Both the position numbers and the translations under genes were made by a program. A model generated the notes under the pieces. That model was given only the letters and a program-made list of their open reading frames with translations, had not been told where the DNA came from and searched no databases. DNA of 64,000 bases. Origin: Dehalococcoidia bacterium (GTDB lineage Bacteria; Chloroflexota; Dehalococcoidia; DSTF01; JACRBR01). Below are positions 8,493-49,849 of the stretch, one piece after another (the first letter of the stretch is position 1; the number at the start of each line of letters is the position of its first letter). The stretch covers positions 145,161 to 209,160 of the forward strand of contig JBBDXD010000001.1 in NCBI GenBank assembly GCA_040902535.1, read 5' to 3'.

Positions 8493-8504
8493 ACAGCGTC
8501 GCGA

Positions 8505-19617: not shown

Positions 19618-19730
19618 CGCGCACTCCACTTCCAGCTTCGTGCAGCGCATCACAATGACGCTATACTGACTGCGCATATCGTGCGATCAGCGTGCTGGCC
19701 GCGGCCGTGCTCGCGTGTCAGGTTGAGGAC

Positions 19731-20591
19731 ATGCAGGTCATCAAAGCCAAAGAACTCGGGTTCTGCATGGGCGTGCGACGCGCCGTCGACATGATGGAGC
19801 ACGCCGCGGGCGAACTCGGGCCCATTACGAGCCTCGGCTCGACCGTGCATAACCCGCAGGTCGTCGGCAAGCTGCGCGAGCGTGGCGTCGACGTCATCGC
19901 CACGATCGACGAGATCGACGCGCGTCCAGTCGCCATCACGGCGCACGGCGTCGGCCCCACGGTCCTCAGCGCGCTCGAGGCGCGCGGAGCGCAGATTGTC
20001 GATACCACCTGCCCGATCGTCACGCGCGCTCAGCAGTGGGCGAAGAAGCTCACCGACGAGGGCTTCGGCGTCATCGTCTTCGGCGACCCGAACCATAAGG
20101 AAGTGCGCGGCATCCTCGGCTGGGCGAACGGCAAGGTCGTCACGATGCGCAGCGCCGACGAACTGGACGCACCCCTGCCCGCGTGGATGCCGTCCCGCGT
20201 CGGAGTGCTCTCACAGACCACGGAGACGGAAGCGCACTTCGCCGCGTTCGTGCACAAGTTGCTGACGGCGCATATCGACCATATCAGCGAACTGCGCGTC
20301 ATCAACACGCTCTGCAACGCGACGACGAGTCAGCAAGCCGCCACGGAAGAGTTGACCGGTCAGGTCGACCTGATGATCGTAGTCGGCGGCAGGGAGAGCG
20401 CGAACACGCGCCATCTCGCGGAAGTCGCCCGCGAACGCGGGATCGAGACGTACCACGTCGAATCCGCAGACGAGATCGACCGTGCATGGCTCGCCGGTCA
20501 CGAGAACGTCGGCGTTGCGGCGGGAGCATCGACCCCCGACGTGGTGATCGATGAGGTCGTAGAGCGCCTCCACGCCCTGGCCCCGAACTGA
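19731..20591 (+). CDS. ispH: 4-hydroxy-3-methylbut-2-enyl diphosphate reductase
   Basis: MQVIKAKELGFCMGVRRAVDMMEHA...TVHNPQVV...TCPIVTRAQQWAKK...VVGGRESANTRHL (LytB/IspH conserved Cys and His positions). Confidence 0.92.
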   Translation: MQVIKAKELGFCMGVRRAVDMMEHAAGELGPITSLGSTVHNPQVVGKLRERGVDVIATIDEIDARPVAITAHGVGPTVLSALEARGAQIVDTTCPIVTRAQQWAKKLTDEGFGVIVFGDPNHKEVRGILGWANGKVVTMRSADELDAPLPAWMPSRVGVLSQTTETEAHFAAFVHKLLTAHIDHISELRVINTLCNATTSQQAATEELTGQVDLMIVVGGRESANTRHLAEVARERGIETYHVESADEIDRAWLAGHENVGVAAGASTPDVVIDEVVERLHALAPN

Positions 20592-20637
20592 TCTCTATGT
20601 CTCCTGACGTACCAATCTTGAACCTGGCGCGCGGCCG

Positions 20638-22113
20638 ATGACCGAAGTACGACGCAGGCCGAGCAGCCGCCGCCCCAACGAAGGTGGCGTGATCGACGCG
20701 GTGCGCGTGGGCAGCCTCGCCGACGAAATAGGCCTGCAGCGAGGCGACCGCATCACGGCGATCGACGGACGCGCGCTGCGCGACGCCGTCGACTTCCAGT
20801 TCTATGCCGCGGAAGACACCATCGAGCTGGAAGTCGTCCGCGCCGGCGAGCCCGAGGTCATAGAAGTCGAGAAGTTCATCGATGAAGATCTCGGCATCGA
20901 GTTCCAGGACGCCGCGTTCGATGGTGTCCGCACGTGCAACAACAGTTGCTTCTTCTGCTTCCTCAAGGGCAATCCGAAGGGGTTGCGCAAGACGCTCTAC
21001 GTCAAGGACGACGACTACCGGCTGAGCTTCTTCCACGGCAACTTCGTCACGCTGACGAACCTCAGCGAGCAAGACTGGGCGCGCCTCGAAGAGCAACGGC
21101 TGTCACCGATCAACGTCTCGGTGCACGCCACCGAGCCGGAGCTTCGACGCTACATGCTGGGCAACAAGACCGCGCCAGATATTTGCGAGCAGTTGCGCCG
21201 CCTCGACGCGATCGGCATTCAGGCCAACACGCAGGTCGTGCTCTGCCCCGGCGTCAACGACGGCGACGCACTCGACCGCACGATCAACGACCTGACATCG
21301 CTGCATCCGGCCGTGCAGAACGTCTCGATCGTGCCTGTCGGCGCGACGACGTACGCCGAGGAACGCATCGAGCGCCAACACCACGCCGATGAAGTCGAAG
21401 AAGTGAACGTGGAGCACGCACGGCGCGTAAAGGCGCAGGTCGAACCCTGTCAGCGCCGGTTCCGCAAGGAACTGGGCAAGACGCTCGTGTATCTCGCCGA
21501 CGAATACTACCTGCTCGACGGCGGCGAGCCTCCCGGCGTCGCGCACTACGACGGCTTCCCACAGTTCGAAAATGGCATCGGCATGGCGCGCTCTCTGATC
21601 GAAGACTGGAGGAAGACGCGCCGATCGATCGGCGCTGGGGCTAAGCAGCGCTATGCGGTCGATCGCGTCAGCCTCGTCTGCGCGACGCTCATCGCACCCA
21701 CGCTCCGCCGGATCGCGCGCGAATTCGCCGCCGCCACCGGCATCGAAGTCACGGTACACGCGCTTGAGAACACGTTCTTTGGTCCGCGCGTGAACGTGTC
21801 CGGGCTGCTCGTCGCGGAGGACATTGAGCGCCAGTTGCGCGGCCGCGACCTCGGCGACCTCGTCGTGATGCCGCGCTACGCGCTGGACTACACCGCGAAC
21901 CGATTCCTCGACGACGGCACGCCTGACCAACTGCAGCGCAGCCTCGGCCTGCCGATCGGGTTCGCGTCGTCTCTGCGCGCGGTCTTGCAAATCGTGTCAG
22001 AACCGTTAGAATCGCCCGTGTCGGGCGCCGAAACCGCGGCGGCCACGAACGGTAAGGCCTGGGTCGACTATGCGGCCCTGAACGAAGGAGGTGCGCCGGC
22101 AGCGGCGAGGTAG
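20638..22113 (+). CDS. PDZ domain plus DUF512-type radical-SAM-like Fe-S protein
   Basis: N-terminal PDZ-like GSLADEIGLQRGDRITAIDGRAL. CxxxCxxC motif TCNNSCFFCF with the LSFFHGNFVTLTNL and PINVSVHAT blocks typical of DUF512 proteins. Confidence 0.7.
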   Translation: MTEVRRRPSSRRPNEGGVIDAVRVGSLADEIGLQRGDRITAIDGRALRDAVDFQFYAAEDTIELEVVRAGEPEVIEVEKFIDEDLGIEFQDAAFDGVRTCNNSCFFCFLKGNPKGLRKTLYVKDDDYRLSFFHGNFVTLTNLSEQDWARLEEQRLSPINVSVHATEPELRRYMLGNKTAPDICEQLRRLDAIGIQANTQVVLCPGVNDGDALDRTINDLTSLHPAVQNVSIVPVGATTYAEERIERQHHADEVEEVNVEHARRVKAQVEPCQRRFRKELGKTLVYLADEYYLLDGGEPPGVAHYDGFPQFENGIGMARSLIEDWRKTRRSIGAGAKQRYAVDRVSLVCATLIAPTLRRIAREFAAATGIEVTVHALENTFFGPRVNVSGLLVAEDIERQLRGRDLGDLVVMPRYALDYTANRFLDDGTPDQLQRSLGLPIGFASSLRAVLQIVSEPLESPVSGAETAAATNGKAWVDYAALNEGGAPAAAR

Positions 22114-28309: not shown

Positions 28310-29059
28310 TCAATCATCTTCGGGCCTATTCGGATTGAAGAGCTGCGGACCCAGGTACAGGTCATCGAAATAGACATCGGCTACCGCCGCACCGTCCGCG
28401 GCGCCCTCCCGATCCCGCACTGCCAGCGAAAGCTCGAGGTACTCCCAGCCGATGGGATCCCAACCCAGCCGCGACCGGATCGCCTCCGGCACGGGATAGG
28501 AGAAGTACGTCCATTGCCCCGTCGAAGGTTCATCTCGGCTCAGGAAGACGAACGCCTCCGTCGGCGACGTGAACGGCTCCCGTGCCGCGCCTCCGAGCAT
28601 GAAATGCACTTCGTGGAGTTCACTGCCGTCCGGATGCCCGCCGCCGCGGATCGATACGACGAACTCTACGTACGGCGACATCCCCGGCGACTCCCAGCTA
28701 TCGACGTAGTAATAGCCCGAGACGAACTCCGGGAACGTATCACTGACGATGCGCTGCGTCGCGCCGGCGATCCTCGGCCCGGGCGCCGCATCGCCAGCCG
28801 GCAGTTCCAGCCGCAGGCTCAGCGTCCCCGTCCCGGGTTTGAGATTGGTGACGCGAAACTGCCGGTCCGGCGATGCGGCGAACCACGGATCGGCGCCTTG
28901 CTCGAAGCCGGCGTTCTGCAGGACGTTCGGCTGGACCGCCGGCGTCGGCGCCGCGATGACGGGCTGCTCAGCGAAGACGCCGCACGCCGCACAAGCGAAT
29001 GCCCCCAGTCCCGCAATCGCGAGCGCACCACGCTGTCCGAGCCGCCACCTACGCCGCAT
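28310..29059 (-). CDS. secreted hypothetical protein with CBM_4_9-like module
   Basis: Signal/lipobox-like MRRRWRLGQRGALAIAGLGAFACAACG. NAGFEQGADPW jelly-roll module start and a Trp/Tyr-rich C-terminal half. The track ORF starts 50 codons upstream in a low-complexity Arg-rich frame. Confidence 0.55.
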   Translation of the reverse strand: MRRRWRLGQRGALAIAGLGAFACAACGVFAEQPVIAAPTPAVQPNVLQNAGFEQGADPWFAASPDRQFRVTNLKPGTGTLSLRLELPAGDAAPGPRIAGATQRIVSDTFPEFVSGYYYVDSWESPGMSPYVEFVVSIRGGGHPDGSELHEVHFMLGGAAREPFTSPTEAFVFLSRDEPSTGQWTYFSYPVPEAIRSRLGWDPIGWEYLELSLAVRDREGAADGAAVADVYFDDLYLGPQLFNPNRPEDD

Positions 29060-29060
29060 T

Positions 29061-30014
29061 CTAGATCGGCGCCCCGCGTGCGGCGCCTCGCAGCGCGACG
29101 GTCCGAGGTTTCCCTGTCTTGCGGCGCGCGCCCCCGCTCGCGGCCGCGTTCGCGAGCTTCGTTGCACGGCGCGCCCTCGGCGCGCGCTGGCAGTTCGGAC
29201 AATACACACTGCTGCGACCGCCGACCTTGAGGCGCCGCATCACGCCGCCGCACTCGTTCAGGCACGGCTCGCCCTCGCGGCCGTACGCCTTCACGGTCTC
29301 CTGGTTGCGTCCCGGGTCGCCATCGAGGTTCACGTGGTCGCGCAGCGTCGTACCGAGCGAACTGCCGCGCCCTTCGATGCCCATGCGCAGCGCATCGATG
29401 ATGCCGGCGTGGAGGCGCGCGTAGTCGCCGGCGCTGAGCCGATTGGCCGGACGCAAAGGATGGATCTTCGCGTAGTGCAACGCTTCGTCTGTATAGAGAT
29501 TGCCCATGCCGGCGAGTACCGTCTGGTCGAGGATGACCGACTTGATCGGCGCTTTCCGCCTTCCCGCGCGCTGGCGCAGCACCGCCGGCGTAAACTCCGC
29601 CTCGAGCGGCTCCGGCCCGAGCGTCTCCATCACCATCGTCGCATCTTCGACGAGCCACATCGTGCCGAACTTCCGCAGGTCGGTCCACCGCAGCTCGTGT
29701 CCGTCGTCTAGTCCGAAGACGGCGCGTACGTAGTCGTCGGGCGGATCGACGGGGCGGCGATACAGGATGTTGCCGGACATGCGACGGTGGATCACCCAGG
29801 CGCGCCCGTCATCGAGATCGACGATCAGGTACTTGCCGCGCCGCCGCAACCCGGCGATCCGCCGCCCCGTGAGCTGCCTGCAGAACTCCAATGCCGGCAC
29901 GAGCTGCACAAGTTGCGGCGTGTCGGGCGCCACAAAACACGACGTGACGCTGCGCCCGATCACGCGCTGTTCCAGATCACGCCGGACAGTTTCGACTTCG
30001 GGAAGTTCAGGCAT
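29061..30014 (-). CDS. mutM: formamidopyrimidine-DNA glycosylase
   Basis: MPELPEVETVRRDLEQ (catalytic Pro2/Glu3), H2TH, zinc finger CPNCQR, plus a basic C-terminal extension. The 610-aa track ORF is an upstream in-frame shadow; ATG at 30014. Confidence 0.9.
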   Translation of the reverse strand: MPELPEVETVRRDLEQRVIGRSVTSCFVAPDTPQLVQLVPALEFCRQLTGRRIAGLRRRGKYLIVDLDDGRAWVIHRRMSGNILYRRPVDPPDDYVRAVFGLDDGHELRWTDLRKFGTMWLVEDATMVMETLGPEPLEAEFTPAVLRQRAGRRKAPIKSVILDQTVLAGMGNLYTDEALHYAKIHPLRPANRLSAGDYARLHAGIIDALRMGIEGRGSSLGTTLRDHVNLDGDPGRNQETVKAYGREGEPCLNECGGVMRRLKVGGRSSVYCPNCQRAPRARRATKLANAAASGGARRKTGKPRTVALRGAARGAPI

Positions 30015-30207
30015 GCGATGCAGGATAGCGCGAAGTTCGTATCCGGCGGCTGCATATGCCGCGCATCTGATCGTTCTCCTAAGCGCGGACGTCATCCACA
30101 ATAGAGTGGGATTCTGCGGACGGCGGGACACTTGTTCTGAGACGGATCGCGCCCAGATCAGCGCTGCTCGCCCCACGCCTGCGAGCGCGCCGGCTCGGAG
30201 GAAACGC

Positions 30208-30687
30208 ATGGATTGGCTCCCGGTCGAGGTCAAGGATCTGCTGCGCAGCGCGCTCGTCTGCGAGTTCACCGTCGTCGGCAAGCACGGCGAGCCGGTGACG
30301 CACCCGCTGTTGCCGCTGTGGGATGGCGACCGCGTGTACATGACCTCGAGCGTGTCGTTTTCGCGCAAGCTCGACCACATCAAGCGCGACGCTCGCGTCA
30401 GCCTGGCGATCAGCGATCCCGTGTCAGCGGGTGGCCTCGCATCGCGGTGCTGCGTGCAGGGCGACGCCCGGATCATCGAAGATGATCCGCACACGACGTG
30501 GGAGCAGGTGCTGCCGCTCTGGCGCGCCAAGGAGCCTGCCATCGACTTCTTCCTGAGCAAGCGATTCGCCCTGCCGCTCTTCTTCGAACGCTCGATCATC
30601 GAAATCACTCCGGTGCGCGCACTCTGGTGGCCCGACGGAGACGTCACGCACGTCCCGCTCGCCGCCGCCGCGAGGGAGGCCGCCTGA
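30208..30687 (+). CDS. pyridoxamine 5'-phosphate oxidase-like (split-barrel FMN/F420-binding) protein
   Basis: MDWLPVEVKDLLRSALVCEFTVVGKHGEPVTHPLLPLWDGDRVYMTSS... has typical PNPOx-like length and pattern. The stop overlaps the next start (ATGA). Confidence 0.65.
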   Translation: MDWLPVEVKDLLRSALVCEFTVVGKHGEPVTHPLLPLWDGDRVYMTSSVSFSRKLDHIKRDARVSLAISDPVSAGGLASRCCVQGDARIIEDDPHTTWEQVLPLWRAKEPAIDFFLSKRFALPLFFERSIIEITPVRALWWPDGDVTHVPLAAAAREAA

Positions 30688-32051
30688 TGAAGATCGACCG
30701 TGCGCTCTTCGACAAGCTCGCAACATATCCCCACGTCGTCGTGTCGTGGGTCGGCGACGATGGCTACCCGACGCAAACGGCAGCTTCGTTTGAGGCCGAC
30801 GCCGACGCATTGGAAGTGCGCATCGCGCGCACAGGCTTGCCGCTGCCGACCGACCGCCAGGTCAACGTCACCGTCAGCCACGTCCGCCCGCAACCCGGCA
30901 CCGGCTACGACCAGCGCCGCTACATCTGCCTCTGGGGCACGCTTGCCGAAGGTGACAAGGGCTTCACGCTCAAGCCCGAGCGGGCGTGGGGTTGGGACGA
31001 GCAGGAGACGCCGTTCTTCGAATACGTCGAGCGCTCAAACCCCGTCGCGATGGAGTACATGAGCAAGCTGTCGCTCGAGCGCGGCGCGCCGGTGAAGCCG
31101 CAACTCTCGCGGTTCTGGACGTTCCTCGTGGCGACGCGGTTGCCGTTCCTGACCGCGACGATCGTGCCCATCCTGCTCGGCATCGCCGTCGCGGCATACC
31201 ACGGGCACTTCAGCTGGTGGCTCGCCGCGCTCACGCTCATCGGCGGCATGGCCGTACACATCGGACTGAACGTCGCCAACGACGTCTTCGACGCCATGTC
31301 CGGCGCCGACGAAGCAAACGTCTCGCCGACGCAGTTCAGCGGCGGCTCGCGCGTGATCCAGCGCGGCCTCGTCACGCTGCGGCAGATGAGCACGATCTCG
31401 CTCGTCGCGTACGCGGTCGCCATAAGCATCGGCATCTTCCTGGTGATCAACCGCGCGTCGGTCGAACTGTTCGTCATCGGCGTAGCGGGCGTATTCCTGA
31501 GCGTCTTCTACACGGCGCCGCCCTTCCGGCTCGTGCATCATGGCCTCGGCGAACTCACCACGGCGCTCGGCTTCGGGCCGGTCATGGTGCTCGGCGCCTA
31601 CGTCGTGCAGGCGCAGCATCTATCGGGTGAGGCGTTCGTCGCGTCGGTCCCGGTCGCGATCCTGATCGCGCTGATCCTGTACGTGAACGAGATCCCGGAC
31701 CGCCACAGCGATGCGAAGGTGGGGAAGCGGACGTTGCCCGTGCGCATGGGACAGGCGCTCGTCACGCAGGGCTTCCTCGTGGCGGCGCTTTCGGCATTTG
31801 CGGTCGTCGCGATCGGGGCGGCGACGGGCTATCTGCCGCGCCCGACGCTCATCGCGTTGCTGGCGCTGCCGCTCGCCTTCAAGGTCTACGACGGCATCCG
31901 CGCCCACTACAACCGCCCGTACGACCTCATGGCAACCATGGGGCACAACGTGCAGTTGCACCTGCTCACCGGCGTGCTGCTCTTCACGGGCTACATGGTG
32001 GCCGTCATCGCCGACAAGGTGATGGATTCGCCGCCGGGGATCTTGAGTTAG
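30687..32051 (+). CDS. fusion protein: PNPOx-like domain plus UbiA/MenA-family polyprenyltransferase
   Basis: About 170-aa N-terminal PNPOx-like region (HVVVSWVGDDGYPTQTAASF...). Then about 8 TM helices with NDVFDAMSGAD (NDxxDxxxD motif 1) and YVNEIPDRHSDAKVGKRTLPV (motif 2), characteristic of MenA/UbiA prenyltransferases. Confidence 0.8.
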   Translation: MKIDRALFDKLATYPHVVVSWVGDDGYPTQTAASFEADADALEVRIARTGLPLPTDRQVNVTVSHVRPQPGTGYDQRRYICLWGTLAEGDKGFTLKPERAWGWDEQETPFFEYVERSNPVAMEYMSKLSLERGAPVKPQLSRFWTFLVATRLPFLTATIVPILLGIAVAAYHGHFSWWLAALTLIGGMAVHIGLNVANDVFDAMSGADEANVSPTQFSGGSRVIQRGLVTLRQMSTISLVAYAVAISIGIFLVINRASVELFVIGVAGVFLSVFYTAPPFRLVHHGLGELTTALGFGPVMVLGAYVVQAQHLSGEAFVASVPVAILIALILYVNEIPDRHSDAKVGKRTLPVRMGQALVTQGFLVAALSAFAVVAIGAATGYLPRPTLIALLALPLAFKVYDGIRAHYNRPYDLMATMGHNVQLHLLTGVLLFTGYMVAVIADKVMDSPPGILS

Positions 32052-32079
32052 ATTCCGGTCGCGACATCGACGCCGATCG

Positions 32080-32964
32080 TCATACGTCCGGCGGCTGAAG
32101 TCGCGGCAGATCCCTGCAGTCAAGCGACACGAACGACCCGCTGAAGAACGGCTCCCATTGATCCGCGGCGCCAATGAGCGGCGGCCCGCCATGGAGCAGG
32201 TTCACGCGGTAGAAGTGCCGTCGCGCCGGCACGATGCCGCGCCATTCGAAGACGGTGCCTGACGGCGGGAATGGACCGGCGCCGATGAACGTGCCCGGTG
32301 GAAATCCGTTGTCGAGCAACGGGTTGCGCGGGCTCGCGAATAGCGTCAGATCGATCCACTGCTGCTGCACAGGCCGATCGGGCGTAAGAAACGCGGGTGC
32401 CAGGCGGAAGGTGACCTGCGACGTGCCGTCACCGAAGCAGGCGTACTCACCGATGAACTGGCAGTTCGGCGTCTCGAAGCTGCCGCGTCCCACTTCGCGC
32501 CATTCGTTGCCGAAGCGCGCGTTCAGCCGAAAGTAGTGCGTCTCTGCCGGGATCAGGTTCCACCATCGCGGCACCTGCGTCGTGAGTCCGACCTCCGGCA
32601 CGAACGGCCCCATGCCCAGGAATGTGCCCGGCGCGAAGTTGTTGTTGAAGAGCGAAATATCGATCCAGATCGCGTCCGGCACCGCCCCGAACTTCAGCCG
32701 AAGATCGTCGGTCCCGGGTATTCGGAAGCGTGCCTGTGCGCCGGTGTCTCCGGGGCAGTCGATGCCCGAGACGAAATTATCCGGTGGCGCGCTCTGCGCC
32801 CACGCGCGATCCGCGCCAGCCGGCCCCATGACGGCGGCGCCCAGAAGTACAATGATGGCTGCCAGCGAGGATTGCACCGATACCCTCCCATCGCCCGTTG
32901 CGACACTATCAGTGTGAAGCTGCTCAATTGCGCGTACCTTGGATTCCGCGGCGAGGCGTTGCAA
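32080..32964 (-). CDS. secreted hypothetical protein with an internal tandem duplication
   Basis: Signal-peptide-like SSLAAIIVLLGAAVMGPAGADRAWAQS. Two about 90-aa repeats begin WIDISLFNNNFAPGTFLGMGPF... and WIDLTLFASPRNPLLDNGFPPGTFIGAGPF...; the true start is uncertain. Confidence 0.5.
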   Translation of the reverse strand: MQRLAAESKVRAIEQLHTDSVATGDGRVSVQSSLAAIIVLLGAAVMGPAGADRAWAQSAPPDNFVSGIDCPGDTGAQARFRIPGTDDLRLKFGAVPDAIWIDISLFNNNFAPGTFLGMGPFVPEVGLTTQVPRWWNLIPAETHYFRLNARFGNEWREVGRGSFETPNCQFIGEYACFGDGTSQVTFRLAPAFLTPDRPVQQQWIDLTLFASPRNPLLDNGFPPGTFIGAGPFPPSGTVFEWRGIVPARRHFYRVNLLHGGPPLIGAADQWEPFFSGSFVSLDCRDLPRLQPPDV

Positions 32965-37011: not shown

Positions 37012-37154
37012 GGTAGTCACCCCTGCTGCGCAGATTCTAAAGACGGTGTCGGTGGGCCGTACCGGCCACAGGCCACATAATGGTGTCCGATTCCACGCGC
37101 TGTTGCATCCGTCCGCGGAGTGCGGGGCACCCCGGACGCACACGAGGAGCCATT

Positions 37155-37952
37155 ATGCCTGACTACCAGCACATCCTCTACGAACCGCGCGGCGGCGTCC
37201 TGCTCATCACGCTGAACCGCCCCGAAAAGCTCAACGCCTGGACGCAGATCATGGAGAACGAAGTGATCGACGCGACGCGCCAGGCGGCGGCTGATCCGGC
37301 CATCGGCTGCGTCGTCATCACCGGTGCCGGTCGCGGGTTCTGCGCCGGCGCCGACATCGGCGGCTGGGACCGCGGACTGCGCGGGGAAGCGCCGAAGCGC
37401 CCCTCGAAGATGCTGCTGGAAGGTGGCAGCCCCGAGGTGCCGATCGCGCTGACGCACGGCAAGCCCGTGATCGCCGCGATCAACGGCGTGTCCGTGGGCG
37501 TCGGGCTGACCATGACGATGGCGTGCGACATCCGCATCGCGTCGACGGAGGCGCGGTTCTCGGCGCGGTTCGTGAAGGTCGGCCTCACGCCGGAGTGCGG
37601 CAGTTCGCGCTACCTGCCCCTCGTCGCCGGATTGCCGAACGCGCTGTACCTCACCCTCACTGGTCGCATCATCGATGCGGACGAAGCGCTGCAGCGGCGG
37701 CTCGTCGACCGCATCGTGCCGCCCGACCAGCTGATGCCCGAAGTGATGAAGCTCGCCGAAGAGATCGCCGCCAATCCGCACGAGGCGATCTGGGCGGCGA
37801 AGCGCTTGCTACACTCGAACGTGAATGAGACAGATCTGCGCAAGGTCGTGTCGCTCGAAAGCTATTCGATCCGCGAACGGCAAACAGAGCCCGACCACCG
37901 CGAGGCCGTGACGGCGTTCATGGAGAAGAGGCAGCCGGTCTTTAACCAATGA
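37155..37952 (+). CDS. enoyl-CoA hydratase/isomerase (crotonase family)
   Basis: LLITLNRPEKLNAW...VVITGAGRGFCAGADIGGW...AAINGVSVGVGLTMTMACDIRIAS crotonase signature; GAGGAG RBS before ATG 37155. Confidence 0.85.
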   Translation: MPDYQHILYEPRGGVLLITLNRPEKLNAWTQIMENEVIDATRQAAADPAIGCVVITGAGRGFCAGADIGGWDRGLRGEAPKRPSKMLLEGGSPEVPIALTHGKPVIAAINGVSVGVGLTMTMACDIRIASTEARFSARFVKVGLTPECGSSRYLPLVAGLPNALYLTLTGRIIDADEALQRRLVDRIVPPDQLMPEVMKLAEEIAANPHEAIWAAKRLLHSNVNETDLRKVVSLESYSIRERQTEPDHREAVTAFMEKRQPVFNQ

Positions 37953-38815
37953 CCACGACCAGGGAAGAACAGACGCCGCAGGAGACCGTCGCGGACTTCG
38001 TGCGCATGCTAGACGTGCGTCCGTCGGGGAACGACGTCTTCACCAGCGAGAGCAAACGCGAGCACGAAGACCAGCACCGGCTCTTCGGAGGCATCGTGCT
38101 CGCGCAGGCGACGATCGCAGCCGGGCGCACGGTCGAAGACGCGTCGATGCACTCGCTGCACGCCTACTTCCTGCGCGGCGGCCGCTTCGACGTGCCGGTG
38201 GAGTATCACGTCGAGCGCGTGCGCGATGGCCGCACGTTCAAGGCGCGACGCGTGCTCGTGCGCCAGGGCGGCGACGCGATCTGCGATGTGACGACGAGCT
38301 TCGCCCACCAGGAAGAGGGCATCGCGCATCAGGATCCGATGCCGGACGCGCCCGACCCGGAGACGCTCGTCGATGCCCGCGAGCAGTTTCCGATGGAAGA
38401 CGGCACCATGTGGCCGTACGGCCCGATCGAGTGGCGGCTGTGCGAGCCTCCGGACTACATCGCGAAGCCGGGCGAGCGGCCGCTCGTGCGAGAATGGGCG
38501 CGCATGCGACATCCCTTGCCGGCGGACCCGGTGTTGCACGCCGCTGCGCTCGTCTTCGCTAGCGACGCAGGATCGTTCTCGGCGATCGAGCGCCGCTACG
38601 GCGACGAGGGCATGGAGTGGCGCGCCTCGGCGAGCCTGGACCACGCGTTCTGGCTCCACCACCCGATCTTCTGGGACGGCTGGATCCTCATGACCACAGA
38701 GAGCCCCGTCGCATACTCGGCACGCGCGCTGTCGTATCGCGCGTTCTACACCCACGGCGGCCTGCAGGTCGCATCCATGGCGCAGGAGGCGGTCGTGCGG
38801 CGGAAGCGCGAGTGA
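37949..38815 (+). CDS. tesB: acyl-CoA thioesterase II
   Basis: Double hot-dog TesB pattern (...LFGGIVLAQATIAAG...SLHAYFLRGG...DGRTFKARRVLVRQGG...). The start overlaps the upstream stop. Confidence 0.8.
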   Translation: MTTTREEQTPQETVADFVRMLDVRPSGNDVFTSESKREHEDQHRLFGGIVLAQATIAAGRTVEDASMHSLHAYFLRGGRFDVPVEYHVERVRDGRTFKARRVLVRQGGDAICDVTTSFAHQEEGIAHQDPMPDAPDPETLVDAREQFPMEDGTMWPYGPIEWRLCEPPDYIAKPGERPLVREWARMRHPLPADPVLHAAALVFASDAGSFSAIERRYGDEGMEWRASASLDHAFWLHHPIFWDGWILMTTESPVAYSARALSYRAFYTHGGLQVASMAQEAVVRRKRE

Positions 38816-38974: not shown

Positions 38975-40120
38975 CTACTTTCCCGCGACCTTGTAATACA
39001 ACGCCTCGTGCGCGTCCGCGACGTGCTCCCACGAGTACTCGCGCTTCGCGTACGCCAGCGACGCAGCGCGCCGCTCCTCGACGAGCGCCGGCGACGCAAT
39101 GAGTTCGCACAGGCGCTCACGCAGCGACTCCACCGGGCGCCCGATCTCGAAGCTCAGGCCCGCTTCGCCGACCGTCTCGAGATTCTCCGCGATGTTGCTG
39201 ACGAGCACGCAGTTCCCGTAGCCCATCGCTTCGACGAGCGACAGCGCGGTGCCTTCGATCTCCGACGGCTGCACGTAGGCGTACGCGTGCGCGAACAGCT
39301 CGCGCGTGGCCTCGCCGTAGACCGGGCCGAGCAGTCGCACGCGTGCGTCCTTCGCTGCGCGCCCTTCCAGCGAGCGCCAGTACGAAGCGTCGCCGGAGCC
39401 ATCGCCCACGATGACGCACTGCATGTCTGCCTCCACTCCGGCGAAGGCGTCGATCAGGTGATGCACGCCCTTCTCCGGCGTGATCCGCCCGACGAACAAC
39501 ACGTAGCCGCCGCCGCGCAGCCCATAGGTGTCGAGTGCGGCGCGTCCATCAACCTCGCGCGTGTCGACGCCGTGCGCGATGTAGACCGGCTCGCGGCCGA
39601 ACTTCTCTCGATAGTAGCGCGCGACCTCGCGCGAGTCGGTGATACAGGCGCCCGATGCACGGATCGCGAACAGCGACGACCGCTCAAGAAGCGACTTCGC
39701 GATGCGGCCCCACTTGCGGCGTCGCCAGTCCATGCCGTCGACGGAGATGACGGTGCCTTTGCCAGCCAGGCGCAGCAGCGGCAGCCACGGTGCGTTGCCG
39801 ACGCCAAAGACGTGCACAACGTCGGAGCGGTGAAACAGCGCGTGTACGCCGGACAGCGCTGTGTGGCTCGGCGTATCGACGTGCTTTTCGCGGATCGACG
39901 GGAGCAGCACGCGCCGCATGCCCCGGTGTACGACGGCGCCGGTCGCGGAGTTGTGCGCGCGGCAGTACGCTGTCACGCGGTGTCCGCGCTCGACCATGCG
40001 CGCGCCGACCTCCTCAGCGACGGTCTCGAGACCGCCGTAGTTCGCGGGGACGCCGCGCATGCCGAGCATGGCGATGCGCAACGGCCGCACCGCCGCCTGC
40101 GCGTCTGTGCTGTGAGTCAT
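38975..40120 (-). CDS. glycosyltransferase family 4 (GT-B)
   Basis: LRIAMLGMRGVPANYGGLETVAEEVGARMVERGH N-domain. C-terminal EX7E-like region (GEAGLSFE, ...SEIEGTALSLVEAMGYGNCVLVSN). Confidence 0.8.
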   Translation of the reverse strand: MTHSTDAQAAVRPLRIAMLGMRGVPANYGGLETVAEEVGARMVERGHRVTAYCRAHNSATGAVVHRGMRRVLLPSIREKHVDTPSHTALSGVHALFHRSDVVHVFGVGNAPWLPLLRLAGKGTVISVDGMDWRRRKWGRIAKSLLERSSLFAIRASGACITDSREVARYYREKFGREPVYIAHGVDTREVDGRAALDTYGLRGGGYVLFVGRITPEKGVHHLIDAFAGVEADMQCVIVGDGSGDASYWRSLEGRAAKDARVRLLGPVYGEATRELFAHAYAYVQPSEIEGTALSLVEAMGYGNCVLVSNIAENLETVGEAGLSFEIGRPVESLRERLCELIASPALVEERRAASLAYAKREYSWEHVADAHEALYYKVAGK

Positions 40121-40123
40121 GGA

Positions 40124-41149
40124 TCAGAACACCCGGGGATATGGTTTGAGGGACTCGTGTACTTCCGTCAAGAGCTGCATCCAGCGCAGGTTGTAGTAAC
40201 GCGGGTGCAAAAGTTCCTGGCTGTCGATCTCACCCAGATGCTCGAGAATGCTGTCCACCGAATCCTTCACCGTGCGCTGCGGCGTGAAGCCCGTAGCCTC
40301 CGTCAGCCGCGCGTTCGACGTGCGATAGTTGCGGATGCGCCCGGTCGCCGGCGTCGGCGTCAATTCGATCGCGCCGACGATCGGCTCGACTGCTTCCGCG
40401 ACGACTTCGGCGAGTTCCTTGATCTGATAGTTCTCCTGCACGACGTTGAACACGCGCCCCGCGACGTGCTCGGCGGGCGCATCGAGCGCGGCGATGTGCG
40501 CCGCGGCGACGTCCTGCACATCGACCAACGGCCGCCACATGAATCCGCCTTCGTGCAGGAAAAGCTGGCGTTTGAGCAGCGCATCCTTCAAGAACGTGTT
40601 CACGACCAGGTCGTAGCGCATGCGCCGGCTGTACCCGCCGACCGTGCCCTGCCGGAGTAACACGACTTCGAGACCGCGCTTGCCCGCTTCGATGAGGCGC
40701 CGCTCCGCTTCGTACTTCGACTCCGAGTACGGGCCGATCGGCTGCACCGGCGCGTCCTCATCGAGGACGTCATCGCCGGCGAGACCGTCGTAGATCGAGC
40801 CGCTGGAGCCGAAGCTCAGGCGCTGTACGCCGGTGCGGATGCAGGCGTTCGCCAACTCTTCCGTGGCGATCGTGTTCATCTGCCAGTTGGCATTGGGATC
40901 GAGGTCCGCGGTCGGGTCGTTCGACAACCCGGCAAGGTGCACGACGGCATCCACGCCGTGGAGGTCTTCGTCGCGCATCTCGCGCACGTCGCGGGAGAGC
41001 AGATCGACGTTCGGCAGTGCATCGAGCCCGCAGGTGCCCCAGAAGAACCGGTCGAGCACGCGCACGCGGTCGCCGCGGTCGACAAGCTGCGCGACCAGCT
41101 CAACGCCCACGTAGCCAGCGCCGCCCGTCACGCAGATCAACTTGCTCAC
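40124..41149 (-). CDS. NAD-dependent sugar epimerase/dehydratase (SDR extended family)
   Basis: LICVTGGAGYVGVELVAQLV (Rossmann TGGAGxxG), YSESKYEAE (YxxxK). Confidence 0.85.
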   Translation of the reverse strand: MSKLICVTGGAGYVGVELVAQLVDRGDRVRVLDRFFWGTCGLDALPNVDLLSRDVREMRDEDLHGVDAVVHLAGLSNDPTADLDPNANWQMNTIATEELANACIRTGVQRLSFGSSGSIYDGLAGDDVLDEDAPVQPIGPYSESKYEAERRLIEAGKRGLEVVLLRQGTVGGYSRRMRYDLVVNTFLKDALLKRQLFLHEGGFMWRPLVDVQDVAAAHIAALDAPAEHVAGRVFNVVQENYQIKELAEVVAEAVEPIVGAIELTPTPATGRIRNYRTSNARLTEATGFTPQRTVKDSVDSILEHLGEIDSQELLHPRYYNLRWMQLLTEVHESLKPYPRVF

Positions 41150-42417
41150 GTCGCGACCCCCTGGTTCGATGTCACCAACTGCGGTTCCCGGCTCAGCGCT
41201 CGCTGGTAGATGGCAATGAGCTGGTCGTAGTGCCTTTGCGCACTGAATCTCTCTTCGATGAACGAACGTGCGTTGACGCCCATTGCACGTGCGCGGGGCG
41301 GATCGCCGGCCAATTCGTCGATGGCGCCTGCGAGTGCGGGGGTATCCCCGGCGCGGAAGACCAGGCCGGTCTCGCCGTGCTTCACGAGTTCCGGCAGACC
41401 ACCCAGGTCCGAGACGATGACCGCCCTCCCTCGCGCGGCCGCTTCCATGACACTGAGCGGTGCGTTCTCATACCACTCCGAAGGCGTGACCGTAAAGAGC
41501 GATTCGTCAAGAAGCGCCATTAGCCCCGCCTGCGGCAGGTGTCCTGTGAACCGCACGTTCGGCGCTCCGGCCTCCTGAGCGTATCGCTCGAGAGCGGCGC
41601 GGTCCTCGCCATCGCCCGCGATCACCAGTTCGCATGACTCGGCCGCCGAGCTTCGGGCAAACGCGTCGATTAGCGTGCGGATGCCCTTCACGCGCTCCAA
41701 CCGCCCGACGTACATGATGCGTCGTTTCGGCTCGATGTCCGGCATGTCGCGGGGTTCGATGAAGTTCGGCAGGTAGGTGATCTTCGCCGCATCCATCCCG
41801 AACTCCGCCGCCTTGCCCGCCAGAAACCTGCTCGGCGCGATGAAGCAGGCGACGTTTCGCCGGTACAGCCCGAGCGCCGAGTGCAGATATGCCTCCACGG
41901 TGCACAGGACGCTCTTGGCGCGCGAATCTTTCACGCATCCTTGCAGCGTGGCGTTGAAGAACGCGCCGCCTTTGCATCGCTCGCAGGGAGCGCCGTTCGC
42001 ATACAGCGTGTACGCGGGGCAAATCAACTTGTAGTCGTGCATCGTCAGCACGGCGGGAATGCGGTGCTTCGCGAGCACCCGCAGGACCGAAGGTGAAAGC
42101 TGATGGTAGATGTTGTGCAGATGCGCGACGTCCGGCCTCGTGGCGCGGATCAAGGCGTCGAGCTTCCGCGCCGCCTCTCGCGAGTACAGCATGCGGCCGG
42201 CCGCTGCGATGTTGGCAGAGATACCGGCGTCTTCGTCGCGCAGCTCGATGTTCGAGACGAAGTATCGCGCGTACGGCGTCGCCTCGTTCTCCGGATGCTG
42301 CATCGAGAACGGGATCACGTCGTGGCCGTGGCGCGCGAGCAACTCCGTCTGTGCGAAGTAGACGGTCTCGGCGCCGCCGCGACGGTAGTGGAACTTGTTG
42401 ACGTTCAGTACTCTCAT
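41146..42417 (-). CDS. glycosyltransferase family 4 (GT-B)
   Basis: MRVLNVNKFHYRRGGAETVYF..., C-terminal ...PSEWYENAPLSVMEAAARGRAVIVSDLGGLPELV. Confidence 0.8.
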   Translation of the reverse strand: MRVLNVNKFHYRRGGAETVYFAQTELLARHGHDVIPFSMQHPENEATPYARYFVSNIELRDEDAGISANIAAAGRMLYSREAARKLDALIRATRPDVAHLHNIYHQLSPSVLRVLAKHRIPAVLTMHDYKLICPAYTLYANGAPCERCKGGAFFNATLQGCVKDSRAKSVLCTVEAYLHSALGLYRRNVACFIAPSRFLAGKAAEFGMDAAKITYLPNFIEPRDMPDIEPKRRIMYVGRLERVKGIRTLIDAFARSSAAESCELVIAGDGEDRAALERYAQEAGAPNVRFTGHLPQAGLMALLDESLFTVTPSEWYENAPLSVMEAAARGRAVIVSDLGGLPELVKHGETGLVFRAGDTPALAGAIDELAGDPPRARAMGVNARSFIEERFSAQRHYDQLIAIYQRALSREPQLVTSNQGVAT

Positions 42418-43817
42418 GCGGCGGTCTTCACCTCCGCGTCGGACGGCGCCGCGTCGAGTAACGCCGGTCGCCGCTGGTAGGCGCCGCTCATCACGACGAT
42501 GACGCCGGCGAAGGCCCAGAAGTACCACTCGAGCACCGGGAAGATCAGGATGTTGTCGGCGAGCGCGGTCACCATGCGCGCCGCAAGCACCATGATGAAC
42601 GCGAGCATGAGATCGCGTCTGAACGGCGATTCGGCTTCGCGATGCCCCTTGAGCGCAATACCCAGCAATCCCTTGTACAGCATCAGGACGGCGAGCAGTC
42701 CCCAGATGCCGGTCTCGGCGAGCAGGCGGATGTACTCGTTGTGCGACAACGCACCGAGTTGGACATCGACGGCGCGCAACCCGGCGCCCGTGGTGACCAG
42801 TTCAAGCGGCGACGCCACCTCCAACGAATCACCCCACGTCTTCTGGCGCCAGAAGACCGACCCGGTGTCGCTCGTCGCTTCATCGATGCGCGTCTGTACA
42901 CCGGGTAGCGCGAAGAACAGCGCGCCGGCCGCCAGCGGCACGAGCAGCACCGCCCAGCGCGCCTTTGTAGCGAGGAAGATCGTGGACAGCACCGCGAGCC
43001 CGATCCAGGCGCCACGCGTCTGCGACCCGTAGATGCACAAAACCGTCGCAGGAATGAACAAGAACAGCCCTACGCGCACAAGCGGCGATTTGTTGTGCAT
43101 GAAGTACACGACGGAGAGCGGCAGCAGCCCGACCAGGAAAAACGCGTAAGGCGCGGGGTGCGTGAACGTGCCTACGAGCCTCGGCAGACCTTCGGTTTCC
43201 GGCGCCGTACCGCTGAAGAACTGATACAGGCCGACGGTGACCGGGATCACCGCCGCAAGGATCATCACGCCCAACATCATGCGCCAGTCCCGCTCCTCCT
43301 CCATCAGGTCGACGACCAGCACGTACACCATGAACGCGCTGAAGGCGCGCAGCCAGTCCTCGAGCGCCAGACCGACGTCCGGAGCGAGCGCAAGACCGAT
43401 AGCGGCAATGAGCAGATAGATCGCGAAGGGCTTCGTCAGCGGGATACGCCACAGATTCATGCGCCTGAGCCCGATATGCGCGACACCGATGCCGATGATG
43501 AGGAATGTCATCACCGCGGCGGCGTTCGCGTCGACGGAGCGCTCCCCGCCCAGCAGCGGCACCGTCGCGGCGACGTCGATGACGGCGCGGATCAGCAACA
43601 GCGTCAGCAGCGCAACGCGCGTATCCACGAGCGCGACGATGATGAACGCGCACACGACGGATGACGCAAGCGCTGCCTCCATAGGCAACTGCAGTAGGAG
43701 CAACGCGACGAGGCCCCCCATGACGAGCCCGAGCCACACGTCGTTGCGCCGCCGGATCCAGCGGGCCGTGCTGTGGCGTCGTGGGCGGGGCGATGCCGCT
43801 GTTGCGGTGACTGCCAT
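42414..43817 (-). CDS. O-antigen ligase/polymerase-like (Wzy_C family) membrane protein
   Basis: About 10 TM helices, a large periplasmic loop with GSQTRGAWIG and HNEYIRLLAETGIWGL (Wzy_C/O-antigen-ligase hallmark). Confidence 0.75.
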   Translation of the reverse strand: MAVTATAASPRPRRHSTARWIRRRNDVWLGLVMGGLVALLLLQLPMEAALASSVVCAFIIVALVDTRVALLTLLLIRAVIDVAATVPLLGGERSVDANAAAVMTFLIIGIGVAHIGLRRMNLWRIPLTKPFAIYLLIAAIGLALAPDVGLALEDWLRAFSAFMVYVLVVDLMEEERDWRMMLGVMILAAVIPVTVGLYQFFSGTAPETEGLPRLVGTFTHPAPYAFFLVGLLPLSVVYFMHNKSPLVRVGLFLFIPATVLCIYGSQTRGAWIGLAVLSTIFLATKARWAVLLVPLAAGALFFALPGVQTRIDEATSDTGSVFWRQKTWGDSLEVASPLELVTTGAGLRAVDVQLGALSHNEYIRLLAETGIWGLLAVLMLYKGLLGIALKGHREAESPFRRDLMLAFIMVLAARMVTALADNILIFPVLEWYFWAFAGVIVVMSGAYQRRPALLDAAPSDAEVKTAA

Positions 43818-45043
43818 CAGCTTCCTGCCGCCTCCGCACCTATCGTCTGGCGTACGGGAACACGCTCGTGCTCGTTCAGCAATGGTTCCAGGATCGCCGA
43901 GAGCTGCTCGACGCGATTGTCCCAGGACTCGTTTCGCGCGGCATGCTGCCTCGCCATCGCGCGTTCCGGCGAGTCATGCGCCATCGCGTCTTCGACCGCG
44001 GCCAGGAACTCTTCGCTACTGCGTGCGAGCGTCATCTCGTCGCCGGCGTAGGGCCGCATCTCCGCCATGTCGGTCGCGACGATAGGCTTGCCCGCCGCCA
44101 TGTACTCGTACAGCTTCAGCGGGAAGACGTGATGCACGTAATCGTTCAGGACGTAGGGGATCAGGCACACGTCCATCGCCTTGATGTACGCAGGCAATTC
44201 TTCGATCTTGCGGTTGCCGAAGAAATGCACGTTGGGCAGCGCTTGCAGGCTCCCGAGATCCGTGTCCTTCTTGACCGGCCCCACCAGCGCGAACCACCAC
44301 TCCGGCCGCGCCTTCGCCAGGTACGTCAGCAGTTCGACGTCGAGCCGGAAGTCGATGACGCCGATGTACCCGATCACCTTGCCCGGGAGCCTCGCGATGT
44401 CATCAGGGATCTTCGTGTCAGGCGACGCTGCCGTCGCGAACAGACTGGTGTCCGCCCCTTCCGGCACGAAGTGCACATTCGGGTTCAGGTGCCGGCGCGA
44501 CTCCACCAGGTTACGCCCCGTGCAGACAATGAGGTCCGACTCCTTGCAGCATTCGATCTCGCGCGCGCGCACGCTAGCCGCCGGATGCCACCAGTAGGGC
44601 ACCGATGCGAAATCGTCGACGCAGTGGTACACGGTCAGCGACGGCTCCGTCGCTCGCCCGAGGTGCGGAAAAGATGGCTGGAAGTTCCAGTACACCGGAT
44701 CCCTGAAGCCGAGTCGCTTCGTCTGTCGCGCGAGCCATCGCCGCATGATGAATGCGTTGACGGCGTTCGCAACCTTGGTGTAGCGCAAGGGCAGGATGGG
44801 CGGCGGCGCGCCCGCGTAGACGTTCTTCGCCACCTTGCGATAGCCACGCCGCCATCGTCGAAACTGCTCCATCACCGCGCCGCGACGGCGGACGCCGGTA
44901 AACAACGACAGCGGCGAGATCGGCTGATCGACGAAGAAGATGCGATTGTGCTCCGCCAGCCTGCTCATGAACTGCTGCGGCGTGCCCCAGTGGTCGTCCC
45001 ACGTGACGAACGAAATGCAAACGATGTCGCGCCCTTTGATCAT
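43817..45043 (-). CDS. glycosyltransferase family 4 (GT-B)
   Basis: MIKGRDIVCISFVTWDDHWGTPQQ..., C-terminal ...RKIEELPAYIKAMDVCLIPY...YMAAGKPIVATDMAE. Confidence 0.75.
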   Translation of the reverse strand: MIKGRDIVCISFVTWDDHWGTPQQFMSRLAEHNRIFFVDQPISPLSLFTGVRRRGAVMEQFRRWRRGYRKVAKNVYAGAPPPILPLRYTKVANAVNAFIMRRWLARQTKRLGFRDPVYWNFQPSFPHLGRATEPSLTVYHCVDDFASVPYWWHPAASVRAREIECCKESDLIVCTGRNLVESRRHLNPNVHFVPEGADTSLFATAASPDTKIPDDIARLPGKVIGYIGVIDFRLDVELLTYLAKARPEWWFALVGPVKKDTDLGSLQALPNVHFFGNRKIEELPAYIKAMDVCLIPYVLNDYVHHVFPLKLYEYMAAGKPIVATDMAEMRPYAGDEMTLARSSEEFLAAVEDAMAHDSPERAMARQHAARNESWDNRVEQLSAILEPLLNEHERVPVRQTIGAEAAGS

Positions 45044-45063
45044 GCGGGATATTGCTCCACGTC

Positions 45064-46224: not shown

Positions 46225-46308
46225 GTGTGAACTCCCCTTCTGTGCGCGTCGCTCGCCCTCAGCCGTCCTTGCCCGCGTCCCCGACGGCCAGCTTCGCCAT
46301 GGCCTTCT

Positions 46309-47358: not shown

Positions 47359-48386
47359 CGCGTCGATTCAAATTCCCCGTGATCATCGACCACGCGGCTC
47401 TTCGGCGAGACGAAGTCCTTCATCCGCCGCGCTACGATCAGACCCTGCCGCGCCATCACCAGGTGCGGGGGCGCAACGCTGAATCGGGCTCGCACTCCAT
47501 CCGTCTCAGCCCAGCGCGCCTTGTATTCGAACCCGCCGCCCAGGTCAACGCGTTCATATGGCGACTGAGCACACCAGCGATAGAACAGCTCGTCCCGCCG
47601 CACGCCCGTGCCGGCTTTATCGAACTCCGGTTCACGCCCGCTGTTGGCGATCACCAGCGCCTTGCCGCGGACGGAAGCATTCATTCCCGCGACCGGGCGT
47701 CCATCGATCAGCAGCCGGAAGCTGTGATACTGGCCGCGACTCATGAGGTAGCTCGCGGCCACGCGGATATCAGGCGCCGCGACCGTCTCGGACCAGGGGT
47801 GGTCCGCCCACGTTTCTTCCCAGCGATCGATCGTCCATTCGGCGGCGCCGGGCTGATCCACCTCGAACGACACTTCTCCCAGTCGCGCGCAGCGGTTTCG
47901 CGCCTTGCGCAGGTCGCGCGCATGGTGACGCTCGCGCCAATACGCGTCCAGGTCGATACGCGTGGAGACGCGATACACCGCCTCGTACTGCACGAAGTGC
48001 ACGCGCTTCGACGCGGGGACAGGCGCCTCCCACTCGTTGACCCACACGAACAGGCCCAGCGCTGACAGCGCTTCGATTTCGCGGCCGGGCAGACACGGCG
48101 GAAGCGCGGCCGACACCACGCCCTCGGTGATCAGGTCCCAGTGGAGGTTCCGCCGCCGCAGCGCGATCAGGGCGACCGGGTCGTCACCGTCGGTGACCAG
48201 CGCCACGCGCTTCTGTGCCGGCGAAGGAGTATTGACCAGGAGCCGGAAGAGGTCGTGCGAACACGTTTCACCTTCTGGCAGCGCAAGCAGCGCATCGTCC
48301 AGCGCGCACTCCCACCGGTCGAACCAGTGCGCCTTCAACGTCCGCTCGGGTGCCATCCTTCTTTCGCGCAGCTTGAACATCGGCAT
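47349..48386 (-). CDS. CelD/FemAB-like GNAT acyltransferase (paralog A)
   Basis: Paralogous to 46309-47358 (about 45% identity by eye), with a 10-nt overlap. Confidence 0.55.
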   Translation of the reverse strand: MPMFKLRERRMAPERTLKAHWFDRWECALDDALLALPEGETCSHDLFRLLVNTPSPAQKRVALVTDGDDPVALIALRRRNLHWDLITEGVVSAALPPCLPGREIEALSALGLFVWVNEWEAPVPASKRVHFVQYEAVYRVSTRIDLDAYWRERHHARDLRKARNRCARLGEVSFEVDQPGAAEWTIDRWEETWADHPWSETVAAPDIRVAASYLMSRGQYHSFRLLIDGRPVAGMNASVRGKALVIANSGREPEFDKAGTGVRRDELFYRWCAQSPYERVDLGGGFEYKARWAETDGVRARFSVAPPHLVMARQGLIVARRMKDFVSPKSRVVDDHGEFESTRWM

Positions 48387-49846: not shown

Positions 49847-49849
49847 GAA

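Follow-up and report, generated by a model that had tools for sequence, protein, structure and literature searches.

A MenA-type prenyltransferase fused to a predicted split-barrel domain and coupled to a PNPOx-like gene in a Dehalococcoidia bacterium and its relatives

Why should a membrane prenyltransferase of the MenA type carry an additional cytoplasmic domain at its N-terminus, and why should its gene overlap that of a small protein resembling flavin- or F420-dependent enzymes? In menaquinone synthesis, MenA catalyses the committed step at the membrane and is regarded as a stand-alone enzyme. The question is raised by two overlapping genes in a 64-kb stretch of DNA from a Dehalococcoidia bacterium (contig JBBDXD010000001.1; this whole stretch is called the window below, and all positions are counted within it unless another locus is named). 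The first open reading frame (ORF1) encodes a free PNPOx/FDOR-like split-barrel protein, and the second (ORF2) encodes a divergent, predicted split beta-barrel (hereafter the N-domain) followed by a MenA-type UbiA prenyltransferase domain. We regard this architecture, a free PNPOx-like protein coupled to a split-barrel::MenA-type fusion, as nearly certain, and the set is conserved in hundreds of species, which belong to two phyla of bacteria and at least one order of archaea. What is new is that a MenA has an obligate accessory made of two split-barrel parts; the enzyme at its core belongs to a familiar type, and the chemistry described below is a proposal. We found no publication on a split-barrel/PNPOx-MenA (UbiA) fusion or on this gene pair, which is in line with the suggestion, made in a preliminary sequence-only reading of this DNA, that the pathway variant is uncharacterised.

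The gene pair and its conservation

ORF1 (159 aa) occupies 30208-30687 on the forward strand, from an ATG at 30208 to a TGA at 30685-30687, and the Shine-Dalgarno sequence GGAGGA (30197-30202) stands 5 nt ahead of its ATG. ORF2 (454 aa) follows on the same strand in a single unbroken frame at 30687-32051 (ATG 30687-30689, TAG 32049-32051), and its own Shine-Dalgarno sequence GGGAGG (30674-30679) lies within the 3' end of ORF1; both ribosome-binding sites were read from the sequence. The stop of ORF1 and the start of ORF2 have one base in common in a TGATG junction (30685-30689, forward strand), an arrangement of translational coupling. The sequence-only reading had described this junction as ATGA; the overlap itself is real, whereas its type is the one-base type. 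Within ORF2, the N-domain comprises residues 1-135 (30687-31091), and the polytopic membrane domain comprises residues from about 139 to 454 (31101-32051). Identical starts of both genes, with the same 1-nt overlap, were found in contig L090 (Logan SRR27977660), which represents an independent assembly with independent gene calling and has the same neighbours.

More than 100 full-length homologues of ORF2 cover the whole query (62-90% identity, about 452-454 aa), and at least 572 species genomes encode a relative according to a scan of one genome per species. The best 80 of these belong to Dehalococcoidia, Limnocylindria, Chloroflexia, Gaiellales, Thermoleophilia and other Actinomycetota, and nearly all are metagenome-assembled genomes (MAGs). 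Remoter members, with N-domain identities of 29-45%, include a cluster named from Candidatus Caldarchaeales, and another remote member comes from a locus of archaeal type that is low in G+C and has NurA/HerA as neighbours. The family of the N-domain is a small one: in a set of 1.84 billion representatives it forms 142 clusters at 50% identity.

The N-domain and the UbiA domain are encoded in one frame in all of the 84 related loci that were compared (three seeming exceptions were tblastn alignments overrunning the C-terminal stop), and an ORF1 homologue lies directly upstream on the same strand, again in 84 of 84. In 74 of these loci the fusion gene has a possible start codon that overlaps the ORF1 stop, by 4 nt (ATGA-type) in 39 and by 1 nt in 35. 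An exact-protein look-up also found the same pair with unrelated neighbours in L001, L004, L087, L089 and L091. The fusion could in principle be an assembly or frameshift artefact, a concern that had accompanied the sequence-only reading, or the two genes could be adjacent by chance. Nothing in favour of this explanation was found, the Nanopore-derived loci described below merely showing that such indel errors occur, and the single open frame in the window, the identical gene calls in the independent contig, the homologues of the same length, the contiguous frame and upstream ORF1 in every one of the 84 loci and the strong conservation of the N-domain leave it practically no probability. We consider it refuted and the fusion genuine.

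Variant architectures are informative about the association of the three parts. Locus L093 has three genes in a row. The first encodes an ORF1 homologue of 164 aa, the second, with a 4-nt overlap, a free N-domain of 136 aa, and the third, which begins just ahead of the first transmembrane helix, a MenA-type protein. In locus L094, an ORF1 homologue and a free N-domain are followed by an unrelated convergent gene, and there is no adjacent UbiA gene. ORF1 and the N-domain are thus adjacent both when the N-domain is fused to MenA (the 84 loci) and when it is free (L093 and L094), and the N-domain can be linked to MenA with or without a covalent bond. It is mainly because the two remain adjacent in either state that we propose a complex of ORF1 and the N-domain. 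The exception to this adjacency is the P0260 type, a single chain of 594 aa consisting of the N-domain, a canonical PNPOx_N domain (35.5 bits) and the UbiA domain; nothing is visible upstream of this fusion on its 1.8-kb contig. On comparison with the ORF1 family, the middle domain of P0260 was rejected as a member, so that this triple fusion supports a functional association, not orthology.

Two other kinds of unusual members were observed. In two Nanopore-derived actinobacterial MAGs (L063 5695-7338 and L065 5461-7323), ORF1 runs in frame into the N-domain::MenA protein, giving chains of more than 600 aa. These were not accepted as true triple fusions and are treated as probable long-read indels, because the C-termini of ORF1 are garbled at different points. 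In an actinobacterial sub-clade (P0184, P0192, P0195, P0199 and P0218; e.g. L004 8001-9596), an Ala/Pro/Glu-rich low-complexity leader of 80-140 aa precedes the N-domain. P0184, P0195, P0199 and P0218 also have a degenerate first Asp-rich motif, with Pfam UbiA scores down to 21-39 bits, and members of this type may, judging from these sequences, be inactive or neofunctionalised paralogues.

The prenyltransferase and its link to menaquinone synthesis

ORF2 matched Pfam UbiA (PF01040) over residues 159-405 with 115.8 bits against a cutoff of 34.2. Its top NCBIfam matches were MenA models, all below cutoff, and across the family the UbiA domain matched MenA models only; two relatives, P0217 (104.0 bits) and P0260 (119.0 bits), scored above the cutoff of the menA model TIGR00751 (102.15). 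The MqnP model NF041584 gave no match to ORF2 at E <= 1; this model was demonstrably present in the searched library, in which it matched a different UbiA protein. The names given to ORF2 in databases are only 'prenyltransferase' or 'DHNA octaprenyltransferase' (DHNA, 1,4-dihydroxy-2-naphthoate).

Residues 3-304 of Escherichia coli MenA (b3930, strain MG1655, 308 aa) aligned with residues 137-439 of ORF2 (27% identity, E 7e-22). Since E. coli MenA aligns end to end with this part of ORF2 only, the N-domain is absent from canonical MenA, as had been supposed from the sequence. The two Asp-rich motifs are present exactly as the sequence-only reading had quoted them, NDVFDAMSGAD at residues 198-208 (31278-31310, forward strand) and YVNEIPDRHSDAKVGKRTLPV at residues 332-352 (31680-31742, forward strand). 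N198, D199, D202, G206 and D208 of the first motif and N334, D338, D342, G346, K347 and R353 in the region of the second are invariant in the family, E. coli MenA included, and the spacings N-D-x-x-D-x-x-x-G-x-D and N-x-x-x-D-x-x-x-D-x-x-x-G-K-x-T-L-x-x-R are those of MenA. In contrast to MenA, ORF2 has the split barrel of about 135 aa at its N-terminus, is constantly coupled to a free PNPOx-like gene and scores below the curated cutoffs. Its first Asp-rich motif is followed by a longer, subfamily-specific cap loop, PTQFSGGSRV (invariant form PTxFSGGSRV), and the motifs YTAPP and GFGP are invariant in the ORF2 subfamily, unlike in E. coli MenA.

In an AlphaFold2 model of full-length ORF2 (predicted local distance difference test score, pLDDT, 78.7), about nine long helices follow residue 142. 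The best solved structure for the membrane part in a Foldseek search was that of UBIAD1, the human MenA homologue (8djk, TM-score 0.73 normalised to the target), and the membrane model also matched DGGGPS, AfUbiA and ApUbiA (TM-scores of about 0.6-0.73 normalised to the target). No solved structure with both a split barrel and a UbiA part was found when the full-length model was searched with Foldseek.

To examine the gene neighbourhood, the neighbouring ORFs of the 84 loci were clustered and the clusters were named with NCBIfam. About 11-13 loci of the Gaiellales/Thermoleophilia type carry, on one strand, genes for a Rieske protein, a cytochrome b6-like protein, subunit IV/cytochrome c, MenG/UbiE (TIGR01934, 208 bits against a cutoff of 158), a HepT-like polyprenyl-diphosphate synthase, the PNPOx-like protein and the fusion. 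This gene order is an operon for late menaquinone biosynthesis and a menaquinol-oxidising complex. The presence of MenG/UbiE and the polyprenyl-diphosphate synthase directly upstream in these relatives ties the fusion to late menaquinone biosynthesis, and the link to prenylquinone synthesis suggested by the sequence-only reading was borne out in this way. Neither the window nor the loci L001, L002, L087 and L089, which are from Dehalococcoidia and archaea, had menaquinone genes as neighbours of the pair. In the Caldarchaeales locus, a separate nearby UbiA gene is of the digeranylgeranylglyceryl phosphate (DGGGP) synthase type, and the fusion is therefore the sole MenA-type gene within the approximately 20 kb examined there. 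Taken together, the core enzyme of ORF2 appears to be an aromatic polyprenyltransferase of the MenA type acting in late menaquinone-type naphthoquinone biosynthesis, and we consider this menaquinone-type role likely.

Some further genes near the pair were noted. In the Caldarchaeales locus L087, electron-transfer flavoprotein alpha/beta genes (7676-9426) are divergent from the pair and adjoin it, and in the Chloroflexota locus L091 a gene encoding a quinone reductase that depends on F420H2 (12274-12483; PF04075, weak match) lies about 5 kb away; as redox partners these neighbours are suggestive, and each was seen in a single kind of locus. In the window, an enoyl-CoA hydratase (ECH)/thioesterase region (37080-38815) was considered as MenB and DHNA-CoA thioesterase. 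This reading was dropped because NCBIfam identified a generic enoyl-CoA hydratase and TesB, which stand beside an acyl-CoA dehydrogenase. The only isoprenoid-related gene of the window is that for IspH/LytB, the last step of the methylerythritol phosphate (MEP) pathway, which is followed by a gene for a Radical_SAM_2/DUF512/PDZ protein (19692-22113 for both, forward strand) and lies about 10 kb from the prenyltransferase.

The two split-barrel units and their possible role

ORF1 exceeded the gathering cutoff of Pfam PNPOx_N (PF01243) marginally (29.2 against 28.1 bits), which agrees with the assignment of 30208-30687 to a 159-aa PNPOx-like protein in the sequence-only reading, and PF01243 is on record (precomputed) for 120 of 120 ORF1 homologues listed. 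ORF1 is 100% identical to an NCBI entry named 'pyridoxamine 5'-phosphate oxidase family protein [Dehalococcoidia bacterium]'. Its NCBIfam matches were F420-dependent PPOX-class families only (TIGR03618, TIGR03667 and TIGR03666), all sub-threshold; TIGR03618 and TIGR03667 were the sole NCBIfam matches in all of the 24 members of the ORF1 family searched, each below cutoff. The PDB sequence closest to the ORF1 family profile was that of the F420 reductase MSMEG_3380 (3f7e, E 2.8e-4), followed by Rv2991. ORF1 keeps the cofactor-phosphate helix motif T-S-S-x-x-F-S-x-K-x-x-H-I-K, and in ORF1 and its relatives the helix with the S-x-K motif (TSSVSFSRKLDHIKRD) is located between strands 3 and 4 and aligns with the same helix of MSMEG_3380. 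PNPOx-like proteins are usually dimeric, with the cofactor at the dimer interface.

The N-domain extends over about 135 aa, with the barrel at residues 1-105, a helix at 119-132 and the first transmembrane helix from about residue 142. In an AlphaFold2 model of the N-domain alone (pLDDT 85.1), an N-terminal helix and eight strands are followed by the C-terminal helix 119-132, which leads to the first transmembrane helix. The N-domain part of the full-length model matched F420-bound Rv2074, Rv1155 and MSMEG_6526 in Foldseek, and the predicted structure has the split beta-barrel fold. The motifs DGYP, G-x-G-Y-x-x-R-R-Y and W-D-E are invariant throughout the family. No signal peptide or membrane segment was found in ORF2 ahead of the first transmembrane helix. 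In the canonical UbiA topology the N-terminus and the Asp-rich loops are in the cytoplasm, and by this topology the N-domain and the Asp-rich active site would face the same side of the membrane.

At the sequence level, the N-domain showed no significant similarity to ORF1 in BLASTP, no PDB sequence was matched by the domain on its own or by its profile at E <= 10, and hhalign comparisons with the ORF1 family using narrow and broad profiles gave probabilities of 0.6-2.4%. The broad comparison (290- and 196-sequence profiles) gave a colinear alignment along 108 columns; its E value was only 0.019 and its probability 2.4%, and we therefore do not count paralogy of ORF1 and the N-domain as evidenced. 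The sequence-only reading had proposed a second PNPOx-like domain of roughly 170 aa, of which the fold is retained in the model, whereas the extent is about 135 aa and sequence support was not obtained. The description as a second copy has to be abandoned: the N-domain is a highly divergent barrel, with a Pro-rich loop, TGLPLPTDR, where ORF1 has the S-x-K phosphate-binding helix. We infer from sequence and model that it is a degenerate barrel, and its sequence suggests that the canonical cofactor site has probably been lost. Because the loop replaces the helix, the N-domain may be a docking or pseudo-enzyme partner and not a second catalytic unit. No family model covers the N-domain, and it merits a family definition of its own.

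We tentatively propose, with a confidence that falls somewhat short of even, that ORF1 binds a redox cofactor, docks on the N-domain and, at the prenyltransferase, converts the naphthoquinone head group to its reduced form. As a canonical PNPOx/FDOR-B-like protein, ORF1 would carry the cofactor, most likely F420 and otherwise flavin mononucleotide (FMN) or flavin adenine dinucleotide (FAD), and would dock on the degenerate fused barrel as a pseudo-homodimer. Docking would tether a two-electron quinone reductase to the prenyltransferase, and the tethered reductase would supply or keep the hydroquinone form of the head group, namely that of DHNA before prenylation and/or of demethylmenaquinol before methylation by MenG. 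The parts of this proposal that we infer are the binding of a cofactor, the formation of a heterodimer, and the redox reaction together with its substrate. Note that the prenyl acceptor of UBIAD1 is a reduced quinol.

The proposal can be compared with two known systems. ORF1 resembles the FDORs (FDOR-A, Ddn/Fqr; FDOR-B, Rv1155, Rv2074 and MSMEG_3380) in its family matches, the N-domain model superposes on FDOR-B structures, and the phyletic range mirrors theirs (Actinomycetota, Chloroflexota and some archaea). Unlike in the FDORs, all F420-family scores of ORF1 are below the curated cutoffs, and the N-domain is without the cofactor-phosphate helix; to our knowledge, no FDOR forms a fusion or an obligate pair with a membrane prenyltransferase. 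The split-barrel FDORs of Actinobacteria and Chloroflexi include F420H2-dependent menaquinone reductases (PMC8498797), Ddn, Rv1261c and Rv1558 are Fqr enzymes (PMC3567243), and FDOR-A enzymes reduce menaquinone (PMC8498797, PMC3567243). The second system is phylloquinone synthesis in cyanobacteria and plants. There, demethylphylloquinone has to be reduced by a dedicated enzyme, NdbB/NDC1, before MenG methylates it (Fatihi et al. 2015 as cited in PMC5299476). The analogy is functional only and lies in a dedicated reductase acting between MenA-type prenylation and MenG methylation. NdbB and NDC1, type-II NAD(P)H dehydrogenases that adopt a Rossmann fold, have no sequence or fold relation to ORF1 or the N-domain, and are neither fused to nor operon-coupled with MenA.

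Several points weigh against a menaquinone-linked reductase. ORF1 does not reach the curated cutoffs of the F420-dependent families (38.3 bits against 79.05 for TIGR03618; 34.6 against 125.3 for TIGR03667), and ORF2 does not reach those of the MenA equivalogs (173.3 against 264 for NF004751; 97.5 against 102.15 for TIGR00751). The N-domain (residues 1-138) gave no Pfam or NCBIfam match at E <= 10, either as a single sequence or with 21 members, it has the Pro-rich loop in place of the S-x-K helix, and non-redox split barrels match its structure equally well. No men, mqn or F420 genes were found in the 64-kb window. Furthermore, DHNA is already a hydroquinone on its release by MenB and the thioesterase, so that a reductase acting before prenylation is not strictly needed. 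The split-barrel pair could instead be a non-redox accessory with a ligand-binding, chaperone or regulatory function, which would bind DHNA, DHNA-CoA, heme or another small molecule and would serve in substrate hand-over to MenA, in gating its activity or as a membrane scaffold for MenG and the polyprenyl synthase. The N-domain, with no cofactor-phosphate helix and no sequence similarity to flavoenzymes, fits such a function, and a ligand might be bound by its strongly conserved Arg/Tyr/Trp/acidic motifs (RRY, WDE). We find this explanation doubtful, given that ORF1 retains the PNPOx/FDOR-type motif and matches F420-dependent oxidoreductase families only, that a canonical PNPOx_N domain occurs within the P0260 chain, and that, on reading the sequence, the PilZ motifs for cyclic di-GMP (c-di-GMP), RxxxR and (D/N)xSxxG, were absent from the N-domain.

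Another explanation, which is partly compatible with the reductase idea, concerns the acceptor. In place of DHNA, the enzyme might prenylate an unrecognised quinone of Chloroflexota/Actinomycetota, or might act in a UBIAD1-like salvage in which an oxidised naphthoquinone is taken up, reduced and prenylated. The sub-threshold scores against nearly all MenA equivalogs point in this direction, as do the invariant cap loop and the YTAPP/GFGP motifs that differ from E. coli MenA, and UBIAD1, the closest structure, prenylates menadiol. An obligatory reductase before prenylation would also be chemically most sensible for an oxidised quinone substrate. In addition, many Chloroflexota have no recognised quinone pathway, and undiscovered quinones have been suggested (2026 survey, PMC13386864). 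Nevertheless, MenG/UbiE, the long-chain polyprenyl synthase and the menaquinol-oxidising bc-type complex in the operon fit ordinary menaquinone, two relatives score above the menA equivalog cutoff, and Thermoleophilia are reported with MK-7(H4) (PMC13386864), and a different acceptor seems to us unlikely.

We retain, tentatively, the proposal of a reductase formed by ORF1 on the N-domain. In a stronger form of this proposal, an obligate membrane-tethered F420H2- or flavin-dependent quinone reductase subunit, a heterodimer of ORF1 and the MenA-fused pseudo-enzyme barrel, would constitute an unrecognised and widespread variant of naphthoquinone biosynthesis that permits the prenylation of oxidised head groups (exogenous or air-oxidised). 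This stronger form is open to considerable doubt; if true, it could explain quinone production in Chloroflexota lineages scored as without quinone pathways. This three-part MenA, with two split-barrel units, is used by a large set of lineages from soil and the subsurface that are abundant and for the most part uncultured (Dehalococcoidia, Limnocylindria, Gaiellales/Thermoleophilia and Caldarchaeales). Should the partners prove to be a quinone reductase dependent on F420 or a flavin, they would link deazaflavin/flavin redox metabolism physically and directly to quinone biosynthesis, and the NdbB/NDC1 step of phototrophs would have a counterpart in bacteria and archaea. Since ORF2 and several of its relatives are under the NCBIfam MenA cutoffs (two pass TIGR00751) and the N-domain is without a model, genome-based quinone surveys may mis-score these lineages.

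Other genes in the window

The window has a G+C content of 66%, and the surroundings of the pair consist of housekeeping genes and a polysaccharide cluster. Promoter and terminator scans over 29900-32300 were uninformative. The pair is flanked by a divergent fpg gene and by a convergent gene of no known family. The fpg gene (29061-30014, reverse strand) encodes the formamidopyrimidine-DNA glycosylase Fpg/MutM, in which the zinc finger is followed by a basic C-terminal extension of about 45 aa that is unusual, and is separated from ORF1 by a 193-bp intergenic region (30015-30207). The gene convergent with ORF2 (32080-32964, reverse strand; 28 bp between the stops) encodes 294 aa without a Pfam or NCBIfam match; the N-terminus of its product resembles a signal peptide, and the chain has two similar halves, both of which end in a 'WIDxxLF...PGTFxGxGPF'-like motif. 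Between a gene for an FmdB-type zinc-ribbon protein and fpg lies an ORF of 299 aa (28310-29209, reverse strand; 249 aa as called in L090) with no family match, the product of which is probably secreted, to judge from a hydrophobic N-terminal segment in its sequence.

The polysaccharide-biosynthesis cluster covers about 16 kb (38975-54946, reverse strand) and includes several GT4 glycosyltransferases, a Wzy-type polymerase, a DegT aminotransferase, two FemAB-like Acetyltransf_6 genes, two flippases, a GNVR chain-length protein and a Bac_transf initiating transferase. A 792-aa GGDEF-GAF-HD (HD_5) protein, a c-di-GMP signalling enzyme, is encoded at 57546-59924 (reverse strand), beside a 636-aa ORF with no family match (55375-57285). 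At 14455-16377 (forward strand), a 640-aa protein combines a lamin-tail domain with a CBM_4_9 carbohydrate-binding domain, and in Limnocylindria loci a larger LTD-containing nuclease-like protein recurs near the pair (cluster C29, e.g. L077 1524-4412).

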